NCBI GenBank assembly: GCA_019119615.1
Contig: DWWQ01000006.1
Coordinates: 4,079-68,078, forward strand
Source: Candidatus Alistipes stercoravium
Lineage (GTDB): Bacteria > Bacteroidota > Bacteroidia > Bacteroidales > Rikenellaceae
Length of the DNA: 64,000 bases
Direction of reading: 5' to 3'
Made by a program: the position numbers and the translations under genes
In this document: positions 44,981 through 50,743 of the stretch, piece by piece
Position numbering within the stretch: the stretch's first letter is position 1
Layout: every line of letters begins with the position of its first letter
The notes under the pieces: model-generated
The model's database searches: none
What the model was told of the DNA's origin: nothing
Seen by the model: only the letters and a program-made list of their open reading frames with translations

Positions 44981-45226
44981 TTATCGCTGCTGCTCGCTCA
45001 AGATGCGCATCGCCACATCGAGTATCGTCGTATCATCGAGCGTTACCACGCCGCCGTCCGGTCCCGGTTCGAAATGAACCCCGACGCACTCCTTCGCCTC
45101 GTGGCTGCCTCCGAAATAGTTGCGGACAGTTTCTACATCGATTCCCAGTTCATCTGCAATGCGTTGCGAACTGCCGCTCGGCAGCCGGTCCTTGATACGA
45201 CGCAACTCGTTAAATGTGATAATCAT
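44981..45226 (-). CDS. Small conserved Bacteroidales HTH-type DNA-binding protein (81 aa)
   Basis: ITFNELRRIKDRLPSGS..RIADELGIDVETVRNYFGG helix-turn-helix pattern, then EPGPDGG...LDDTTIL. Confidence 0.8.
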   Translation of the reverse strand: MIITFNELRRIKDRLPSGSSQRIADELGIDVETVRNYFGGSHEAKECVGVHFEPGPDGGVVTLDDTTILDVAMRILSEQQR

Positions 45227-45460
45227 ATCAGTTGAATTTTAGGTGTTACACTTCTGCACAACTAAATTAATACAATTTTGCGGATTTACAAAATTTCTGC
45301 CCGAAAAAGTGGCACAAAACCGGAAAAACCGGTTACGCATCGAAAAAAACCGAAAGCAGGACGAAACGGCACGGGAGAAATGCATCCGTCCGCATCGGAA
45401 TCGTCTTCCGGGGCGGTACCGGACCGCAATGCCTCCCTCCGAAGATAGATCCGGGCGGAC

Positions 45461-45498
45461 AAAAAAGAACTCCCGCGAAATAACTTTCGCGGGAGCTC
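45461..45498 (-). terminator. Terminator of the FKBP lipoprotein operon
   Basis: A6-GAACTCCCGCGAAA-taac-TTTCGCGGGAGCTC. Confidence 0.85.
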
Positions 45499-45520
45499 AT
45501 GCCATCCAAATCCGAAACGG

Positions 45521-47101
45521 CTAATCCTCGTCGTCGGGCTCGATGTAGAGTTCGAAGATAAGCGGCGTGAAGGGCGGAATCTCCGTACTGATGGTCGTCT
45601 CGCTCTCCGAATCGTCGGTCGTCGTACCGTACCCGTAACCATACCCGTACCCGTAATAGGGATTGTAGTAGCCACCGTAGTAACTGCCGTAGTAGCCGCC
45701 GTAGTAACCTCCGTAGTAGCCGCTGTTTCCGTAGTAGCTGTTGTAATAGCTCAAATAATTGAGGTAGTCCCAATAGGACGACGAATAGCCGCTGCTGTCC
45801 GTGGTCGTACCGCCCGAACGGCCGGTCGAACCGTAGCAGTTCGTCGAGGTGGCGATGATCGCGGCCCACTGTCCGTACTGCAGGTTGGGAACCGTATAGT
45901 ACCACGCCGTAATGGCACCACCCTCTTTGGGCGTATATTCGGATACCTTGCCCTCGGAAACGACCTCACCGTAGATGATCTGCTTCACCTCGTCGATGTT
46001 CGTGTCGAAGATAAAGCCGTCGAGGAAGCGGCCGATATACCAGATCTTCGCCGTACCGTCGAGCTTCACCGTATCGGCCTTCAACTCCTTGATGCCGGGA
46101 TAGGGCTCGTCCTCGTCGGGATGGAAGCGCTTGACGAGCGCCTCGTTGATCTGCGCCTCGAGCGTCGCCATCGAGGCGGCGTCGGCATAGGGAAGATATC
46201 CCGAGGCATAGGGTTTGGGGAAAGTCAGCCCCTTGACGGCCGGGTTGAAACGGTAATTGACATAGACCTGCGGGATGGAGTCGTTGGCGCTGACCCACTC
46301 CTCGGCCACGTTGTAGGGATGATCCGCATCCTCGGGATCTTCGGGGAGCGGCTTGGCATCCGCCGTCTCATCGTCATTGTCGTAAATCTTCAGACCGCCG
46401 TTCGTCTCATTGCAGAAGGTATCGACCTCGTGGCCCTCCTTCTCGAGCGGGTTCTTGACCGTATCGCAGATCGTCATCGTAACGATGAAAGGACGCTGCG
46501 CATCGAGCGTGAAGGTCTGGTTGTCGTCGTTCTGACCCTCATAACCACCATCGCCCGAGACACCGCTCGAACCCACGACGCGCGAAGGCATGTAAAGCAC
46601 CACCTTCGAGCCCTCGCGAAGCCGGATCTCCGTATCCAGACCGCGCGCCGAGGCGTAGTCGGGATCCAGATACAGCGTGTTGCGCATGGCCAGGTAGGTA
46701 CCTTCGATCTGTCCGGAACTCGTGGCATAGCTCTCGCCGCAGTAACGGTAATAGGGCACATAGTGCGTGTATTTGGTGAAAGAACCCACCTGATGCGCTT
46801 CGGCGGCATTGCGCGTGAGGATGATGTTGCCGCTCAAGTCGCGTCCCGAGAAGTCGAACGACACCCAGCAGACCGTATCGCTGATCGGCGCAGCATTCAT
46901 GTCGCCCGCCTCCAGCACATCGACATAATAGCCGCCGTCGGACTGGTAGTTCTTGACCAACTCGGGCCGGTGCTGGTGCATCCAGGCCTCGAGAGCCTGG
47001 TTCTCGAACTTGTCGAACGACTCGGTCTCCTCCTTCGCGCAGGAAGAAAGCAGCAGCACGGCCATCGCCGCAAGACACCATATACGGGTATACAATTTCA
47101 T
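45521..47101 (-). CDS. Lipoprotein with two FKBP-type PPIase-like domains and a Tyr/Gly-rich insert
   Basis: Lipobox LLLSSC. Domain 1: WVSFDFSGRDLSG, LREGSKVVLYMPS. Domain 2: WYIGRFLDGFIFDTN, ITAW, NCYG..., IPPFTPLIFEL. Confidence 0.8.
   Translation of the reverse strand: MKLYTRIWCLAAMAVLLLSSCAKEETESFDKFENQALEAWMHQHRPELVKNYQSDGGYYVDVLEAGDMNAAPISDTVCWVSFDFSGRDLSGNIILTRNAAEAHQVGSFTKYTHYVPYYRYCGESYATSSGQIEGTYLAMRNTLYLDPDYASARGLDTEIRLREGSKVVLYMPSRVVGSSGVSGDGGYEGQNDDNQTFTLDAQRPFIVTMTICDTVKNPLEKEGHEVDTFCNETNGGLKIYDNDDETADAKPLPEDPEDADHPYNVAEEWVSANDSIPQVYVNYRFNPAVKGLTFPKPYASGYLPYADAASMATLEAQINEALVKRFHPDEDEPYPGIKELKADTVKLDGTAKIWYIGRFLDGFIFDTNIDEVKQIIYGEVVSEGKVSEYTPKEGGAITAWYYTVPNLQYGQWAAIIATSTNCYGSTGRSGGTTTDSSGYSSSYWDYLNYLSYYNSYYGNSGYYGGYYGGYYGSYYGGYYNPYYGYGYGYGYGTTTDDSESETTISTEIPPFTPLIFELYIEPDDED
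45626..45718 (-). repeat. Coding micro-repeats: 5 x 6 bp (GY) and 4 x 12 bp (YYGG/YYGS)
   Basis: ACCGTA CCCGTA ACCATA CCCGTA CCCGTA at 45626-45655, and N4-CCGTAGTA x4 at 45671-45718. Confidence 0.9.
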
Positions 47102-47144
47102 ATCTCGTAAAATTCTCATTTCCATATCAATTTAAAGCAGAGCG

Positions 47145-47744
47145 TCATTCAACCGCCTCGACGGTGAAAAACCACGCCACGGGACTCTCGCGGGGTATCG
47201 TGCTGAAGTTCGCGTCCCCGTAGGCCATGTTGTAGGTCATGTAAGCCTCGACCTCATCGCCCTCGCGACATCCCAGTAACGCATAACGCAGCCCTTTTAG
47301 TATGTCACCGCGCATGTCGAGCGTCAGCGGCTCGAACGACCAGGCATCCTCGGCAAGCCCCAGCTCAAGATAGGCGCTGCGGAGCAGCGGATCGTTCGAA
47401 TAGTAAGGGAACGTGCTGTCGGTGATCGTCGAAAAGGTGAAGACATAGGCCCGGAAGGTGATCGTTACCTTCGACGAAGCCTCGACTACCCTTTTCTGGT
47501 CCCGGCCAGGTGCGTAATAGTTGTCGATATACCGATAGACCGTGTTACCCGAGACCGTATAGAAGGGCTGCTGCGCCTCCTGGTCGGCATCCGACTCCGC
47601 AACAAGCGCCGGGGCGTGGGACGACGTGAGGAAGGAGACGATCTTGTCCCGCTGGTTGGGAAGCACCTCCTCGTCGGAACACGAAAGGCAGCACACCGCA
47701 ACCAGTGCGACAAAGGCGTATGACCACAATCTTTTCATCGGCAT
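47145..47744 (-). CDS. Single-domain FKBP-type lipoprotein
   Basis: Lipobox CCLSC, ILKGLRYALLGCREGDEVEAYMTYNMAYG, IPRESPVAWFFTV. -7 box TAAATTTG at 47754-47761. Start 47744 or 47738. Confidence 0.8.
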   Translation of the reverse strand: MPMKRLWSYAFVALVAVCCLSCSDEEVLPNQRDKIVSFLTSSHAPALVAESDADQEAQQPFYTVSGNTVYRYIDNYYAPGRDQKRVVEASSKVTITFRAYVFTFSTITDSTFPYYSNDPLLRSAYLELGLAEDAWSFEPLTLDMRGDILKGLRYALLGCREGDEVEAYMTYNMAYGDANFSTIPRESPVAWFFTVEAVE

Positions 47745-47836
47745 AGAATCGTGCAAATTTACAAAAACAATCCGATTTACGAACAACAAACGCAAAAAAA
47801 CGCCCCTTCGTATGCCGAAGCTGCCGGCCGGAACAC

Positions 47837-47867
47837 AAAAAAAGGGACGGATATCACTATCCGTCCC
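47837..47867 (-). terminator. Terminator of the large surface lipoprotein gene
   Basis: A7-GGGACGGATA-tcac-TATCCGTCCC. Confidence 0.9.
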
Positions 47868-47894: not shown

Positions 47895-50390
47895 TTATTC
47901 CGCAAGCGTAAATGCCTTGTTGATATCCTCGACGGACATCAGATTCGAGAAGTTGTTCCCGTCGCAGATCCAGATAACGGAAGTCGTCAGATTATCCGCA
48001 CCGGCACCCTTCACATAGTTGCCGGAGATGTTCATGTTGGCAAAGCGGAAGCCCAGAATGGTAATGGCGGAATCCTTGCAATACTCGCTGGAAACATTTT
48101 CAAAGGTACAGCCGGTAATTTCCACCGTAGCAGTCTCATTGACTGCATAACCATTGTCGCGCAGTTCGAGATGGATATAACGGTTGCCTTTCTTCGTATT
48201 CTTGAACGTACTGTTCCGGATTACGACCGACTCGATATCCTTGTCCGTCAGCTGAATAGCATCCCATTCCGCATCGACGAACGTGCAGTTCTCGAACGTA
48301 AGGTTCTTGCAGTTGCCTCCGGTAACATAGACAGCGGAACCGTTTTTCGAGGCATTGTGTCCATTGGCAAAGGTCAGATTCCTAACCGTAACCGACGATC
48401 CGTTGAAATAGACGGGCGAACCTTCGAACGTTACACCCTGGCCGTCCAGCACGACATCCTCGTTGAACGAAACCGGGGCCGTCAGAACCACGGTATTCGA
48501 GCCGCTTTCAACAGCGGAGGCAATCGCATTCTGGATCTCGGCGGCCGAATCGACCTTCACGCCGGGAACAACCTCGTAGGTGGCGGGATTGTCGCTCACC
48601 TTCTCCGAGGAGTAGCCCGCGGCCACGAAGTTCGTACCCGCACCCTCGGCACGGTTGTTGGCCGGATCGAAATTCACGAACGTTCCGCCCGTGATGCTGA
48701 CCTTGGCCGTGCCGTTCTTGTAATTCGCATCCAGGCAGTTGATCAGATAGTTGGTACCCCAGGTCGGGTATTCATCCGTCTTGACAAGATCGAAGGTTCC
48801 GCCCTTGATCTCGACAGTTCCCTTATGCACATAGACAGCATCCACATAGCCGAGGTAGGTGCCGCTCTCGATGACCACATGTCCGCCGTTGCGGATATCC
48901 AGGCCATAGACACCGTTGCCCCCGGACTGAACCGTACCGTTCTTGATGGTGAGGTTGCCGCCCAGCACCGAAACAACCGACCAGGTTACATTACCGTCCC
49001 AGGTATCGTCCGATGCGATGGTATGACCGCCCAGATCGAGGTCGAGGGTCTTTCCGGCAGGCACGATGATCGGCTCCTTCAGCACAAGATCCTCCTCCAG
49101 GGTAAAGGTACCGCCCTCCATGGCCGCAACCGTAAGCGCATTCTCATAGTACTGCAGCACACGCGAAACGGAAACCTCCTGTCCTTCCTTATCGATAAGC
49201 GTAACCTTCAGAATCGCCTTGTCTCCATTGGCGGCATCGACGGGCGTTACACGGACCTTGGCATTATTCTGATAAACGCCATCGGCAAAGGCCGGCTTAG
49301 TCAGATCAACCTGCCACGGCGAAGCTGCACGGGTCTGGATATCCATGCCCGTACCGGCACTGTTCTTCACTTCGGCAACCATGGCCGTATAGTCCGACTC
49401 CTTGAGCCCCTGCGGCAATACGATGGCAACATCCGAACCTTTGGCATACACGGTGAAGGGCTCATAGCTGTCAAAGCCTACGGTCAAGGTGTTGGCGCGC
49501 GGAACAATCAGCTGCGTACCATCCACCAGCGTGAAAATCACATTATCCGGATCGCTCGTGTAATCGACGCCATTCTCGGCGAAGACCGCGTCGCCCTTGT
49601 CGCCTTTATCACCATCTTCGCCTTTCTCGCCGGTAGCCTTCACGCCCGTAGAGGCCCAGGTAACTCCGCCGTCGGTCGAAATCTCCCATTCATTGCTGTC
49701 AGCATTGATCCGAACCTGGGGAGCAATGGCATCCTCACCCTGGGCCTTCACACCCGTATCCGTCGTGCCGATCCACCAGTTGCCGTCCTTGATATAGGGA
49801 GTCTGACCATCGTCGCCCGTATCACCCTGGGCCTTCACGCCCGTATCCGTCGTGCCGATCCACCAGTTGCCATCCTTGATATAGGGAGTCTGGCCGTCAT
49901 CGCCCGTGTCGCCTTTGGGACCCGTCACGGGGATCTTGTTGCCGGCCCCATCGGTCATAAATTCAGCTGCGGCATCGCCGATCTTCACGGTCCAGTAATA
50001 GACCCCGTCCGTATCCTTCGCTACACCGATAACCGGAGTCTCACCATCGATACCGTCCACTCCATGCTTGATGGTAATCGACTCACCGGTCTGGAACGTA
50101 ATCGTATAACCGACCTCAATGCCGTTTTCCTTCACGGGAGTTATGTCGGTGATGAAGTTCTTCTCTTCAAGAGCCTTGACAAGGCTTTGGAGAGACTGGA
50201 TGTCCGAATTGACAGACTTCTGCCAGGCCTCAAGTGCTGCTACCCGGTTTTCGAGATCTTCGATATCGGCACGAAGTTCCGAATCATCGTACTCGTCGCT
50301 GCAGGACGAAAACACCAATGTGCTTACACACATCAGTAACCATGCAATCCTGCGACAGAAAAACGTCGCAAACGTGTAAACCTTCTTCAT
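47895..50390 (-). CDS. Large surface lipoprotein: DUF4988/PL29-N-like region with coiled coil and collagen-like Gly-X-Y, followed by beta-helix-like domains
   Basis: Lipobox VFSSC, YDDSELRADIEDLENRVAALE, GVDGIDGETPVIG...YYWT, GEKGEDGDKGDKGD, and (I/V)xGGTF and ENCTF/NSTF/GCTF repeats. Sampled lines are about 47-48% GC. -7 box TATCTTTG at 50535-50542. Confidence 0.8.
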   Translation of the reverse strand: MKKVYTFATFFCRRIAWLLMCVSTLVFSSCSDEYDDSELRADIEDLENRVAALEAWQKSVNSDIQSLQSLVKALEEKNFITDITPVKENGIEVGYTITFQTGESITIKHGVDGIDGETPVIGVAKDTDGVYYWTVKIGDAAAEFMTDGAGNKIPVTGPKGDTGDDGQTPYIKDGNWWIGTTDTGVKAQGDTGDDGQTPYIKDGNWWIGTTDTGVKAQGEDAIAPQVRINADSNEWEISTDGGVTWASTGVKATGEKGEDGDKGDKGDAVFAENGVDYTSDPDNVIFTLVDGTQLIVPRANTLTVGFDSYEPFTVYAKGSDVAIVLPQGLKESDYTAMVAEVKNSAGTGMDIQTRAASPWQVDLTKPAFADGVYQNNAKVRVTPVDAANGDKAILKVTLIDKEGQEVSVSRVLQYYENALTVAAMEGGTFTLEEDLVLKEPIIVPAGKTLDLDLGGHTIASDDTWDGNVTWSVVSVLGGNLTIKNGTVQSGGNGVYGLDIRNGGHVVIESGTYLGYVDAVYVHKGTVEIKGGTFDLVKTDEYPTWGTNYLINCLDANYKNGTAKVSITGGTFVNFDPANNRAEGAGTNFVAAGYSSEKVSDNPATYEVVPGVKVDSAAEIQNAIASAVESGSNTVVLTAPVSFNEDVVLDGQGVTFEGSPVYFNGSSVTVRNLTFANGHNASKNGSAVYVTGGNCKNLTFENCTFVDAEWDAIQLTDKDIESVVIRNSTFKNTKKGNRYIHLELRDNGYAVNETATVEITGCTFENVSSEYCKDSAITILGFRFANMNISGNYVKGAGADNLTTSVIWICDGNNFSNLMSVEDINKAFTLAE
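49741..49914 (-). repeat. 2 x 87-bp tandem duplication (29-aa unit GDTGDDGQTPYIKDGNWWIGTTDTGVKAQ)
   Basis: Copies at 49741-49827 and 49828-49914, 8 mismatches, all at third codon positions. Confidence 0.95.
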
Positions 50391-50743
50391 GTTGTTTGGA
50401 TTAAGAATAAAACAATGTATCTGTTTACCCAACAGGCAATTAGAGACACAGCGACAGAGATTTCAAGAAAGAGCATGCACAGTACTACACATCAACAGTC
50501 TGCCACACATCCCCAACAATACCTAATCAAGATACAAAGATAGCAAAAAAATCCCAACAGGTAGCACGCAAAGATTAAAAAATTGTGAAAAACAGGCAAA
50601 AGGATCCTTTCAGAGAGCCCGTTATTCTCGGGACATGGCAAGGACGCATGGCGAGATAACGCCTTGCATCCGAACAGAAACGGAAGCACTCCGCACGGTC
50701 GAGCCTTCGCTCGCCGACGAATCCGAGAAATAAGGATGTCAGA

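Follow-up and report, generated by a model that had tools for sequence, protein, structure and literature searches.

In the window, by which we mean the whole analysed stretch of 64,000 nucleotides from Candidatus Alistipes stercoravium, a lipoprotein of 534 residues with two FKBP domains (P0001) carries a 79-residue insert dominated by tyrosine and glycine in the flap (80s loop) of its C-terminal domain. The insert comprises residues 436-514 (positions 45584-45820) and is predicted to be disordered; the flap that carries it borders the substrate pocket. We propose, with somewhat less than even confidence, that it may serve a foldase on the cell surface as a disordered Tyr/Gly element for the capture of clients. 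To our knowledge, there is no earlier case of a disordered, tyrosine-dominated segment at the flap site of an FKBP, and full-text searches covering 8.1 million PMC articles and 0.36 million preprints returned no description of a tyrosine-rich FKBP flap insert.

The insert is bordered by the AYG-type motif NCYGSTG (residues 429-435) and by EIPPFTPLIFEL, which begins at residue 515. An N-terminal Ser/Thr/Gly spacer, RSGGTTTDSS (residues 436-445, 45791-45820, delimited by sequence and the AF2 model), is followed by the conserved aromatic motif GYSSSYWDYLNYLSYYNSYYG (residues 446-466, 45728-45790, from an alignment of 67 orthologs), by a variable low-complexity tract of the type (GYY)n/(GY)n (residues 467-500, 45626-45727, from Tandem Repeats Finder and the length variation among orthologs) and by a C-terminal Thr/Ser/acidic spacer, TTTDDSESETTIST (residues 501-514, 45584-45625, from sequence). 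The 55-residue core contains 24 tyrosines, 15 glycines, 7 serines and 4 asparagines, with aspartate as the sole charge. Translation of the open reading frame reproduced exactly the 79-residue insert and the 24 tyrosines of its core given by the first-pass annotation, and the 12-bp and 6-bp micro-repeats described there correspond to arrays of period 12/24 (45665-45723) and period 6 (45623-45655) found by Tandem Repeats Finder. Chance is excluded as the source of the tyrosine enrichment: the probability of 24 or more tyrosines in 55 residues is 3e-14 at P0001's own tyrosine frequency outside the insert (6.8%), and 1e-25 against the crude background of the genome's six-frame ORFs of at least 200 residues. 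Elsewhere in the 2.1-Mb genome, the densest stretch in any open frame has at most 12 tyrosines per 40 residues; the insert has 20. O-glycosylation of the spacers was considered and rejected, as the four D-[ST]-[AILVMT] sequons (residues 83, 221, 282 and 351) are all located outside the insert.

An assembly artefact or a strain chimera is ruled out by identical contigs from independent studies: contigs of four runs from four studies show 0 differences and 0 gaps over positions 45400-46000. Moreover, all sampled words are present in 20 public runs from at least nine studies. Metagenome contigs with shorter tracts stem from co-occurring related species only; rare variants cannot be revealed by contigs.

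The gene of P0001 occupies positions 45521-47125, stop codon included, and was delimited by ORF translation, Pfam, AF2 and Foldseek; it lies on the minus strand, as do all of its parts, its operon partner, the promoter box and the intrinsic terminator. The signal peptide begins at Met9, the probable start, and ends at Cys29, the lipobox cysteine (LLSSC; 47039-47101), in line with the earlier assignment as a lipoprotein. Among the 67 aligned orthologs, Cys29 is invariant and Met9 nearly so; Met9 (47099-47101) is likely the true start, which corrects the annotated ORF start. Next to the cysteine lies the putative acidic lipoprotein export signal AKEETE (residues 30-35, 47021-47038). The N-terminal FKBP-like domain (about residues 60-225, 46451-46948) was recognized by AF2 and Foldseek and has no Pfam match. 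It is degenerate: on reading the sequence, equivalents of the catalytic Asp and Tyr are absent, as are the other pocket residues, and the domain has a flap insert of its own of about 25 residues. Inter-domain helices and a middle segment follow (about residues 226-345, 46091-46450; AF2 helices 226-241 and 316-334); this segment is absent from the shorter relatives in other Rikenellaceae genera, which have 340-470 residues and match P0001 at about residues 8-240 and 348-532 only. The first part of the C-terminal FKBP domain (residues 346-435, 45821-46090, from Pfam and HMMER) runs to NCYGSTG. Beyond the insert, the last FKBP strand EIPPFTPLIFELYIE (residues 515-529) and an acidic tail occupy positions 45524-45583. 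The AF2 strands 509-513 and 522-528 have pLDDT values of 87-97; P521 is invariant, and L522 and F524 are nearly invariant in the 67 orthologs.

An intrinsic terminator (14-bp stem with 8 GC pairs and a T-run; 45457-45498) is found 23 nt past the stop codon of P0001. On the other side, the operon partner (47145-47744) encodes a small FKBP lipoprotein of 199 residues, which has a Pfam FKBP_C match of 22.2 bits, over the cut-off, an AF2 model with FKBP fold (pLDDT 90), and a lipobox CLSC followed by SDEE, which resembles a surface-export signal. The two genes lie side by side at 81 of 83 named Alistipes loci, and likewise at every insert-bearing locus of Rikenellaceae. Inspection of the sequence just upstream of the small gene identified a Bacteroidota-type -7 promoter box, TAAATTTG (47754-47761). 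The upstream 845-aa gene has a terminator at 47844-47867, and the FKBP pair is therefore served by a promoter region of its own. Metatranscriptome contigs span the Tyr tract and the junction of both genes; the two lipid-anchored FKBPs are co-transcribed, and the insert is transcribed. Downstream of the pair, the window contains dnaK; in two Alistipes relatives, the neighbourhood comprises Skp/OmpH, dnaK, secDF, secG and lptE. Three further FKBPs are encoded in the genome: a cytoplasmic SlyD, which has a true IF domain, and two Mip-like lipoproteins, neither of which bears an acidic export signal.

The AF2 model of P0001 (pLDDT 80.5, pTM 0.78) reaches values above 90 in both FKBP domains and agrees with the FKBP fold, a five-stranded sheet around a short helix. 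Its top Foldseek matches are multi-FKBP proteins with a probability of 1.00 (FKBP51/52, wheat FKBP73, Mip, FkpA); the alignments to FKBPs of two or three domains cover about 470 columns. The two FKBP folds predicted by the first-pass annotation were thus recovered, and so was the expected disordered flap of low confidence: over residues 443-508 the pLDDT stays below 50, at 24-38. Based on these values and on its composition, we regard the insert as predicted to be disordered, although a segment with 42-44% tyrosine could instead self-associate or form beta structure. AF2 placed a short strand at residues 439-443, inside the N-terminal spacer, and a low-confidence helix at residues 455-465 of the aromatic motif; as judged from the DSSP string of the model, strands 439-443 and 509-513 may pair as a stalk.

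Pfam FKBP_C (PF00254) matches residues 353-439 with profile positions 5-79 of 94 only, because the insert splits off the last strand; the score of 17.0 bits is below the gathering threshold of 21.1. For four orthologs, a precomputed PF00254 match exists. In HMMER alignments to FKBPs of the PDB, D374, W408 and Y431 fall opposite D37, W59 and Y82 of FKBP12. With Y26, F36, D37, W59, Y82 and F99 of FKBP12 as the reference pocket, these alignments and a reading of the sequence gave Y363, F373, D374, W408, Y431 and F524 in the C-terminal domain. In the 67 orthologs, Y363, D374, Y431 and F524 are conserved to at least 90%, and little or no variation is seen at Y363, D369, G370, F371 and G432. As judged from these residues, the C-terminal domain appears catalytically intact; since W408 is replaced by Phe in many orthologs and the Pfam score is below the cut-off, its PPIase activity is an assumption.

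The location of P0001 was assessed with the criterion for a lipoprotein export signal (LES), i.e. a lipobox cysteine followed by two or more acidic residues in the next six positions, which has also been applied to BamH-K (PMC12578637). P0001 (C29-AKEETE, with three acidic residues in six) and its small partner (C-SDEEVL) both show this pattern, and they are the only LES-bearing FKBPs of the genome; the ortholog consensus at the lipid cysteine of P0001 is SCAKExTES. The acidic residues after Cys29 make a location on the cell surface more likely than one in the periplasm. By this sequence rule, P0001 and its partner are probably exposed on the cell surface. This disagrees with the previously suggested role as an envelope foldase for unfolded beta-barrels, which presumes the periplasm, whereas AKEETE fits a Bacteroidota surface-export signal.

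In FKBP foldases, chaperone power is conferred by a folded domain within the flap. In work of Knappe et al. from 2007, the grafting of an IF domain into the flap of FKBP12 is said to have greatly raised its protein-folding activity, which makes a sticky element at the flap a plausible boost to a foldase. In the mechanism that we propose, the acidic residues after the lipid cysteine would direct the two FKBPs to the external side of the outer membrane, where the Tyr-rich loop would act as a multivalent capture element of low specificity. Tyrosine would offer pi-stacking and hydrogen bonds and glycine would confer flexibility, in a core that is nearly devoid of Lys, Arg and Glu. The loop, projected by the Thr-rich spacers as a stalk, would hold unfolded or partly folded secreted polypeptides beside the prolyl-isomerase pocket and would raise the local substrate concentration, as does the folded IF domain in SlyD. 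Candidate clients are surface lipoproteins and the loops of nascent outer-membrane proteins.

A different role is conceivable if both surface FKBPs are the Alistipes counterparts of BamJ/BamK in the BAM dome and the Tyr loop does the job of BamA EL3, e.g. as a YG-type mesh or in contact with lipoproteins arriving at the surface. We consider this unlikely, although several observations point in its direction. The EL3 loops of BtBamA and PgBamA are rich in tyrosine and project into the dome that is faced by the FKBP active sites (PMC12578637), and the preprint 10.1101/2025.01.31.636011 draws a comparison between EL3 and FG/YG hydrogel domains and puts forward a contact with surface lipoproteins. 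BtBamA and PgBamA have about 35 extra residues exactly at the EL3 point; in the BamA of Alistipes, and in all 30 BamAs examined, EL3 is short. The 30 BamAs were taken from genomes of known FKBP state, some of which belong to genera and families that lack the FKBP insert. Since EL3 is short in insert-less genomes too, there is no presence/absence complementarity within this 30-genome sample; the EL3 contrast holds only against the Bt and Pg BamA structures. A strict relocation of the Tyr-rich loop from EL3 to the FKBP was rejected for the same 30 of 30 short loops. EL3 of F. johnsoniae BamA is short as well, and several Rikenellaceae genera and other families lack both a Tyr-rich EL3 and a Tyr-rich FKBP flap. 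The best PDB sequence match of P0001 is the BtBAM PPIase 9his_I, but with E = 0.023; similarly, the PgBAM chain 9hjm_I is among the fold matches, but the likeness to BAM PPIases is no better than that to generic FKBPs. For the small partner, a BAM-specific fold was rejected: it is a generic FKBP, for which PgBAM chain I ranks 46th. Profile searches gave a similar picture. P0001 is below the equivalog cut-offs of the BamJ (NF053689) and BamK (NF053690) models, with 13.7 bits in the genome search, and an NCBIfam hmmscan of P0001 at E<=1 gave no match to either. The small partner aligns colinearly but weakly with the BamJ model (30-31 bits versus a cut-off of 100), and in the BamK search of the genome no score exceeded 16 bits. 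Among BamJ-like ORFs, the best (C47) have no surface signal and look like periplasmic Mip/FkpA proteins. Membership in BamJ, BamK, BamH or BamI was rejected, as no protein of the genome passes the NCBIfam cut-offs. That no BamK, BamH_bt or BamI equivalog was found by profile in a genome with just one LES-bearing FKBP pair would suit such a substitution, but for BamH and BamI it may reflect narrow models only.

Alternatively, the Tyr/Gly tract might cluster the lipoprotein on the surface of cells or vesicles as a condensate, hydrogel or amyloid-like patch, or make cells stick to each other, to the host or to dietary material, with the FKBP body serving mainly as a scaffold. The composition, which is like that of YG/FG hydrogel domains and of structural proteins with high Gly/Tyr content, would allow this, as would the five [GS]Y[GS] and eight YY motifs in a 55-residue core charged by Asp only. 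A lipid anchor leads to a high local concentration, and the tract is polymorphic in length within a species, as is common for surface contact proteins. Nevertheless, we regard self-association or adhesion as the main role as quite unlikely: the insert is always placed at the rim of a catalytic pocket with conserved residues, which a mere sticker does not need; the specific motif is conserved most, not the repeat tract; and other features of adhesins are absent.

The distribution of the insert bears on whether the tract is harmless rather than useful, i.e. a product of slippage in which codon repeats expanded in a permissive flap loop; this we hold to be distinctly improbable. The insert was found in 120 of 120 parseable database orthologs (48-90 residues) and in 71 of 71 parseable named Alistipes genomes; overall, it has 48-92 residues with 14-31 tyrosines. 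It also occurs in other Rikenellaceae genera, whose flanks are just 35-48% identical; such retention across genera argues against a tolerated by-product. Cultured strains bearing the insert are A. timonensis DSM 25383, A. muris DSM 112343, A. montrealensis and A. senegalensis. The pooled ortholog core consists of 42% Tyr, 21% Gly, 12% Asn and 10% Ser, with Lys, Arg, Glu, Phe and Trp at no more than 0.2% each, and this tight composition, with Tyr in place of Phe or Trp, is likewise not expected of a harmless expansion. The core of P0001 has 44% Tyr and almost no Gln. In the ortholog inserts, the aromatic motif (GYSSSY.DYLNYLNY.NSYYG) is joined by Thr-rich spacers and by a (GYY)n tract of variable length. 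The 21-residue motif is nearly invariant at eight positions (in the 67-ortholog alignment, Y465 invariant and Y451, D453, Y454, N456, Y460, Y464 and G466 nearly so), and its pattern [DN]Y.N[YLMF]..Y is present in 119 of 120 orthologs. The first-pass annotation had suggested comparing orthologs for constant composition and variable length; both were found (120 orthologs, 71 genomes).

The tandem units of 12 and 6 nt do speak for slippage, and two alleles of one species (L107 and P0002, 525 residues) are near-identical, differing by one substitution and a 16-residue in-frame indel in the tract. Together, the TRF arrays and this allele pair indicate that the tract length changes through slippage of 12-nt units; the targets of selection appear to be the composition and the conserved motif, but not the exact repeat number. 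Insert-less relatives from other Rikenellaceae genera and other Bacteroidales families have an ordinary short flap, and the lengths of the aligned region are bimodal (19-37 versus 73-118 residues) rather than a continuum, a further point against a tolerated slippage product. It follows from the short flaps that the insert is a gain within Rikenellaceae; the earlier claim that an aromatic flap replaced an IF domain has to be abandoned. On the tree, presence of the insert changed at least six times, including an independent gain of a similar insert in L071/P0203, which again argues for utility. On the other hand, a nested subclade has kept the Thr-rich spacer and lacks the Tyr core, which, because of the nested position, appears to be secondarily lost, and relatives have other low-complexity inserts at the same flap site (Pro/Lys/Asp-rich in P0144, Thr-rich in P0190). 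These cases favor a permissive loop and indicate that the element is dispensable in some lineages.

Finally, that the Tyr/Asn/Ser/Gly-rich loop binds sugars of capsule, LPS or mucin, with Tyr stacking on sugar rings and placing the foldase within the glycan layer, is very improbable: its composition is typical of carbohydrate-binding surfaces and P0001 comes from a gut bacterium on whose surface it is predicted to lie, but known sugar-binding sites are folded, profile searches of P0001 in Pfam and NCBIfam gave no likeness to any carbohydrate-binding module, and there is no PUL context.

If the insert is a client-capture element, it may illustrate a bacterial use of sticky disordered segments in the handling of proteins outside the cell, where P0001 is predicted to work and ATP is absent. 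It is expressed, conserved across the genomes read of Alistipes, an abundant gut genus (the source here is chicken gut), and lends itself to testing whether a low-complexity sequence rich in aromatic residues can serve as a chaperone module. It would also give a bacterial, extracellular counterpart to the YG/FG and FUS-type domains of eukaryotes, and might provide access to the puzzling Tyr-rich loop of Bacteroides BamA. In a wider reading, which we deem improbable, a disordered Tyr/Gly/Asn loop would be a recurrent part of the extracellular protein-assembly apparatus of Bacteroidales, with a different carrier per lineage: BamA EL3 in Bacteroides and Porphyromonas, and, in Alistipes and several further Rikenellaceae with a short BamA EL3, the active-site flap of a surface FKBP. 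The Alistipes protein would then be a soluble, non-essential and genetically separable carrier, and the function of the Tyr-rich BamA loop (client capture, YG-type mesh or hand-off of lipoproteins) would be directly testable.

Among known systems, SlyD and MtFKBP17 share the architecture: an extra element follows the AYG motif and precedes the last strand, beside the prolyl-isomerase pocket, an arrangement whose canonical form is seen in the genome's own SlyD. As had been noted from the sequence, the insert occupies the flap site of the SlyD IF domain; when aligned by HMMER to the archaeal MtFKBP17 (1ix5), P0001 matches as far as the shared AYG motif. The IF domains of SlyD and MtFKBP17 are folded, beta-rich, cytoplasmic and about 45-60 residues long, whereas the insert of P0001 is of low complexity and predicted to be disordered, belongs to an LES-bearing lipoprotein and was added to an ancestrally short flap. 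Accordingly, P0001 has the flap insertion after AYG but not the IF domain: for the insert (pLDDT 24-38 at residues 443-508), Foldseek found no match to an IF-like fold.

The insert is aromatic, rich in Gly/Ser, poor in charges and predicted to be disordered, as is typical of prion-like or phase-separating low-complexity domains. It resembles in this respect the [G/S]Y[G/S] domains of FUS and the Gly/Phe-rich region of DnaJ, a disordered element within a chaperone that modulates client handling. The latter, however, uses Phe and is a linker, whereas the insert of P0001 uses Tyr and is an active-site loop. In the FUS LC domain, where Gln and Ser abound, Tyr makes up about 12%; the core of the insert is several times denser in Tyr and, by composition, seems closer to YG-type domains.

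From its sequence, the closest compositional analogue of the insert is the Tyr-rich BamA EL3 loop. In B. thetaiotaomicron and P. gingivalis, EL3 is disordered, has 38-39 residues with 12-13 Tyr, and is enriched in Gly and Asn (PMC12578637; preprint 10.1101/2025.01.31.636011); in Bacteroides, the loop is the reported target of bacteroidetocin toxins (preprint 10.1101/2025.01.31.636011). Both elements are rich in Tyr, Gly and Asn, poor in charges, found in Bacteroidales and located near surface FKBP isomerases, and the insert is predicted to share with EL3 its side of the outer membrane. Disorder is indicated for EL3 by missing cryo-EM density and for the insert by low pLDDT. In contrast to the beta-barrel loop EL3, the element described here sits in an FKBP flap and has 48-92 residues with 14-31 Tyr, in a genus whose BamA EL3 is short. 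BamJ (BT_3612) and BamK (BT_3949) are, like the pair studied here, lipoproteins of FKBP fold that bear an acidic export signal and number two per genome; they are single-domain proteins of about 185-200 residues with short flaps, whereas P0001 has 534 residues and two domains. The YG domain of PEX13 and the FG domains of nucleoporins, cited as comparators for EL3 (preprint 10.1101/2025.01.31.636011), are aromatic-Gly sequences of low complexity with few charges, as is the insert, and are proposed to form a cohesive mesh for the hand-over of proteins; these domains are eukaryotic, much longer and located in transport pores, whereas the sequence described here is a single loop on an enzyme.

The minus-strand gene at 45521..47125 encodes P0001, a 534-residue lipoprotein with two FKBP domains, in which a conserved, expressed, predicted-disordered and Tyr-dominated loop borders the pocket of an FKBP domain that looks intact. 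The N-terminus contains the lipobox LLSSC29, whose Cys29 is invariant in the ortholog alignment; Met9 is the likely start. In the AlphaFold2 prediction (pLDDT 80.5, pTM 0.78; 67 orthologs in the input), two alpha/beta domains are modelled well, and the stretch 443-508 is below pLDDT 50. Foldseek ranked the multi-domain FKBPs wheat FKBP73 and FKBP51/52 highest (about 470 aligned columns), followed by FkpA/Mip proteins and a PgBAM isomerase chain; this is the outcome predicted by the first-pass annotation, namely two FKBP folds plus a flap of low confidence. Pfam detected the C-terminal domain alone and below threshold (17 versus 21.1 bits), and the match ends at profile position 79, because the last strand is separated by the insert. 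In HMMER alignments with solved FKBPs, D374, W408, and Y431 correspond to the FKBP12 pocket positions D37, W59, and Y82, and the alignment to the archaeal FKBP 1ix5, which bears an insert-in-flap (IF) domain, stops at the common AYG motif. Thus, the insert occupies the flap (80s loop), which borders the pocket. Since the pocket residues are kept (Y363, D374, Y431, and F524 vary little or not at all among orthologs), the C-terminal domain looks catalytically competent. The N-terminal domain, in which these residues have no equivalents, probably serves as an FKBP-like structural module. This degenerate domain has an additional segment of about 25 residues at its own flap position (VGSSGVSGDGGYEGQNDDNQTFTLDAQRP; 46500-46610, minus strand; residues ~183-212), of which G194, Y195, and G197 are invariant in orthologs.

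The insert consists of 79 residues (45584-45820), which lie, exactly as the first-pass annotation had quoted them, between the AYG-type motif NCYGSTG (residues 429-435) and the last-strand segment EIPPFTPLIFEL starting at residue 515. It is composed of a Ser/Thr/Gly spacer (436-445), an aromatic motif that is conserved (GYSSSYWDYLNYLSYYNSYYG, 446-466), a (GYY)n/(GY)n tract that varies (467-500), and a Thr/Ser/acidic spacer (501-514). The model contains a low-confidence helix (455-465) and short strands at 439-443 and 509-513, which, going by the DSSP string, may pair as a stalk. The core of 55 residues has 24 Tyr and 15 Gly; at the Tyr frequency outside the insert (6.8%), this many Tyr would occur by chance with a probability of 3e-14. 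The Tyr maximum in any 40 residues is 20 for the insert and at most 12 for every other open frame of the 2.1-Mb genome. Another aromatic-rich segment, CWWWYYPYYWTPGYWGDWAGWHYPYSVYYGY, lies in a 218-aa open frame on contig C7 of this genome; it has 12 Tyr, along with several Trp, in 40 residues. The DNA of the insert's second half forms a period-12/24 array (45665-45723; coding-strand unit GGC GGC TAC TAC), after which comes a period-6 array (45623-45655). All sampled words of the region are present in 20 public runs from at least 9 chicken or bird gut studies, and contigs from 4 runs of 4 studies match 45400-46000 with 0 differences and 0 gaps; on these grounds, an assembly artefact was rejected. 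Metatranscriptome contigs, from libraries that can include some DNA, cover the tract (X30; 45400-45956, 0 mismatches), and one contig (X29; 46446-47531) bridges the junction between the large gene and its upstream neighbour.

Among 8000 scored candidates from a search across 5.8 billion proteins, at least 722 are relatives; the named ones are Alistipes. The insert is present in all 120 listed parseable orthologs with a length of 48-90 residues (median 79); composition is conserved and length variable, which the first-pass annotation had proposed to check. The pooled ortholog core contains Y (42%), G (21%), N (12%), S (10%), D (4.5%), and L (4%), with no more than 0.2% each of K, R, E, F, and W. 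The preference is specifically for Tyr, rather than for aromatics in general. The motif [DN]Y.N[YLMF]..Y occurs in 119 of the 120 orthologs, and eight positions of the aromatic motif are at least 90% conserved in an alignment of 67 sequences. Scanning species-representative genomes confirmed 205 relatives. The best 80 of these loci are mostly named Alistipes and include cultured species, and the others come from MAGs labelled Rikenellaceae, Bacteroidales or Bacteroidetes; the closest among these 80 belongs to Candidatus Alistipes faecigallinarum (94%). In 71 of 71 parseable loci of the scan, the insert has 70-92 residues and 14-31 Tyr.

Whole-genome searches of 15 same-genus genomes found the protein at full length in every one. 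Other Rikenellaceae genera possess two-FKBP lipoproteins of 340-470 residues, some with Tyr-rich inserts of differing make-up (Y/N/S, Y/G/M, Y/Q/M) and others with a short flap; homologs in other families of the order have 320-380 residues and a short flap, for example GYGTSGSGSVIPEYAPLLF. When 1.84 billion representatives were searched exhaustively with HMMER, using residues 340-534 as the query, just 139 proteins came back; therefore, the family is narrow. A tree of 64 Tyr-rich and 74 short-flap members, computed with the insert columns left out, requires at least 6 changes between the two states, and nearly all Tyr-rich members fall in one well-supported clade. A nested subclade with the Thr spacer but no Tyr core most plausibly lost that core secondarily, and L071/P0203 represents an independent gain. 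The FKBP flap is a hot spot for low-complexity insertions. Inserts of individual relatives are Pro/Lys/Asp-rich (P0144, KPDYKPDNPDKPDKPDN), Thr-rich (P0190), or Gly/Met/Tyr-rich (P0156, GYGGMGYGGMGYGGMGYG). In loci L061-L063, L065, L067, L069, and L070 (Rikenellaceae genera g183 and g195; proteins of 460-500 residues), the short-flap homolog gained a domain of ~130 residues C-terminal of the FKBP domain, with the pattern …NGDGT..HPY…ELPEG.IRD.LNL.DN…. The same-species alleles L107 and P0002, compared over 525 residues, differ by one substitution and one in-frame indel of 16 residues within the (GGYY)n tract; therefore, the repeat number changes fast, while composition and motif are held.

The large gene is the second of a two-gene operon. 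A -7 box, TAAATTTG (47754-47761), precedes the gene of a small FKBP lipoprotein (47145-47744, minus strand; 199 residues), a gap of 19 nt separates the two genes, and a strong terminator (45467-45498) follows. Of 83 named Alistipes loci, 81 have the small partner next to the large gene, as do all insert-bearing Rikenellaceae loci; as it is also adjacent in some loci of other families, the pair predates the insert. In both proteins, three of the six residues following the lipid Cys are acidic, the criterion by which BamH-K were called surface lipoproteins (PMC12578637); P0001 thus bears a predicted surface-export signal. The genome's five FKBP_C ORFs are this pair, one SlyD, and two Mip-like lipoproteins, the latter without the acidic signal. 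Two other Alistipes genomes show ruvA, small FKBP, large FKBP, small HTH protein, and dnaK in this order; Skp/OmpH, secG, and secDF are close by in both genomes, and lptE in one of them. Here, ruvA and the operon are separated by the gene of an 845-aa lipoprotein (47895-50432, minus strand) with repeats of GDTGDDGQTPYIKDGNWWIGTTDTGVKAQG and C-terminal parts that resemble a beta-helix; this gene looks inserted, as ruvA is directly beside the small FKBP gene in the Alistipes loci L104 and L105. Between the operon and dnaK lies an 81-aa ORF (44981-45226, minus strand) with weak helix-turn-helix matches; L104 and L105 have an ORF of 80-110 residues at the matching position.

We infer that the insert would act on the cell surface by multivalent capture of exported polypeptides that are unfolded or partly folded, whose local concentration at the isomerase site would be raised by the loop, as by the IF domain in SlyD. 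Less probably, the insert could be an element of self-association or adhesion, or a glycan tether.

A role of the insert-bearing FKBP in the BAM dome is unlikely. The Bacteroidota BAM bears an extracellular dome or canopy containing two surface FKBP isomerases, BamJ and BamK, and extracellular loop 3 (EL3) of both B. thetaiotaomicron BamA and P. gingivalis BamA is disordered and Gly/Asn-enriched, with 12-13 Tyr in 38-39 residues (PMC12578637, PMC12611786; both 2025). EL3 has been likened to FG/YG hydrogel domains, suggested to meet surface lipoproteins, and noted as a bacteroidetocin target (preprint 10.1101/2025.01.31.636011). In BamA of this Alistipes genome (L074, contig C47:66191-68734), EL3 is short, SEQNDAYYIWQDATRY, where the chains of these two species are ~35 residues longer. 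EL3 is also short, without the Tyr-rich loop, in BamA of all 30 sampled Bacteroidales genomes (relatives L075-L103), including lineages without the FKBP insert, and EL3 of F. johnsoniae is likewise short. There is therefore no strict complementarity, and a strict relocation of the Tyr-rich loop from EL3 to the FKBP was rejected. Moreover, neither P0001 nor its partner, whose fold is that of a generic FKBP, reached the BamJ or BamK models, and searches with the possibly narrow BamH_bt and BamI models found nothing. For these reasons, the link to BAM is still hypothetical. As bacteroidetocins reportedly target the Tyr-rich EL3, the sampled short-EL3 lineages may differ in sensitivity.

Of the rivals, a neutral slippage product fits the conservation data worst. 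The length of the insert drifts through slippage, with its composition constrained. Full-text literature searches did not find a description of an FKBP of this kind. SlyD of the same genome (contig C36) has a normal folded IF domain at the flap site where P0001 carries its insert. FKBPs with a flap insertion are known; what seems new is an insertion predicted to be disordered and of YG type, in a lipoprotein that is probably extracellular.
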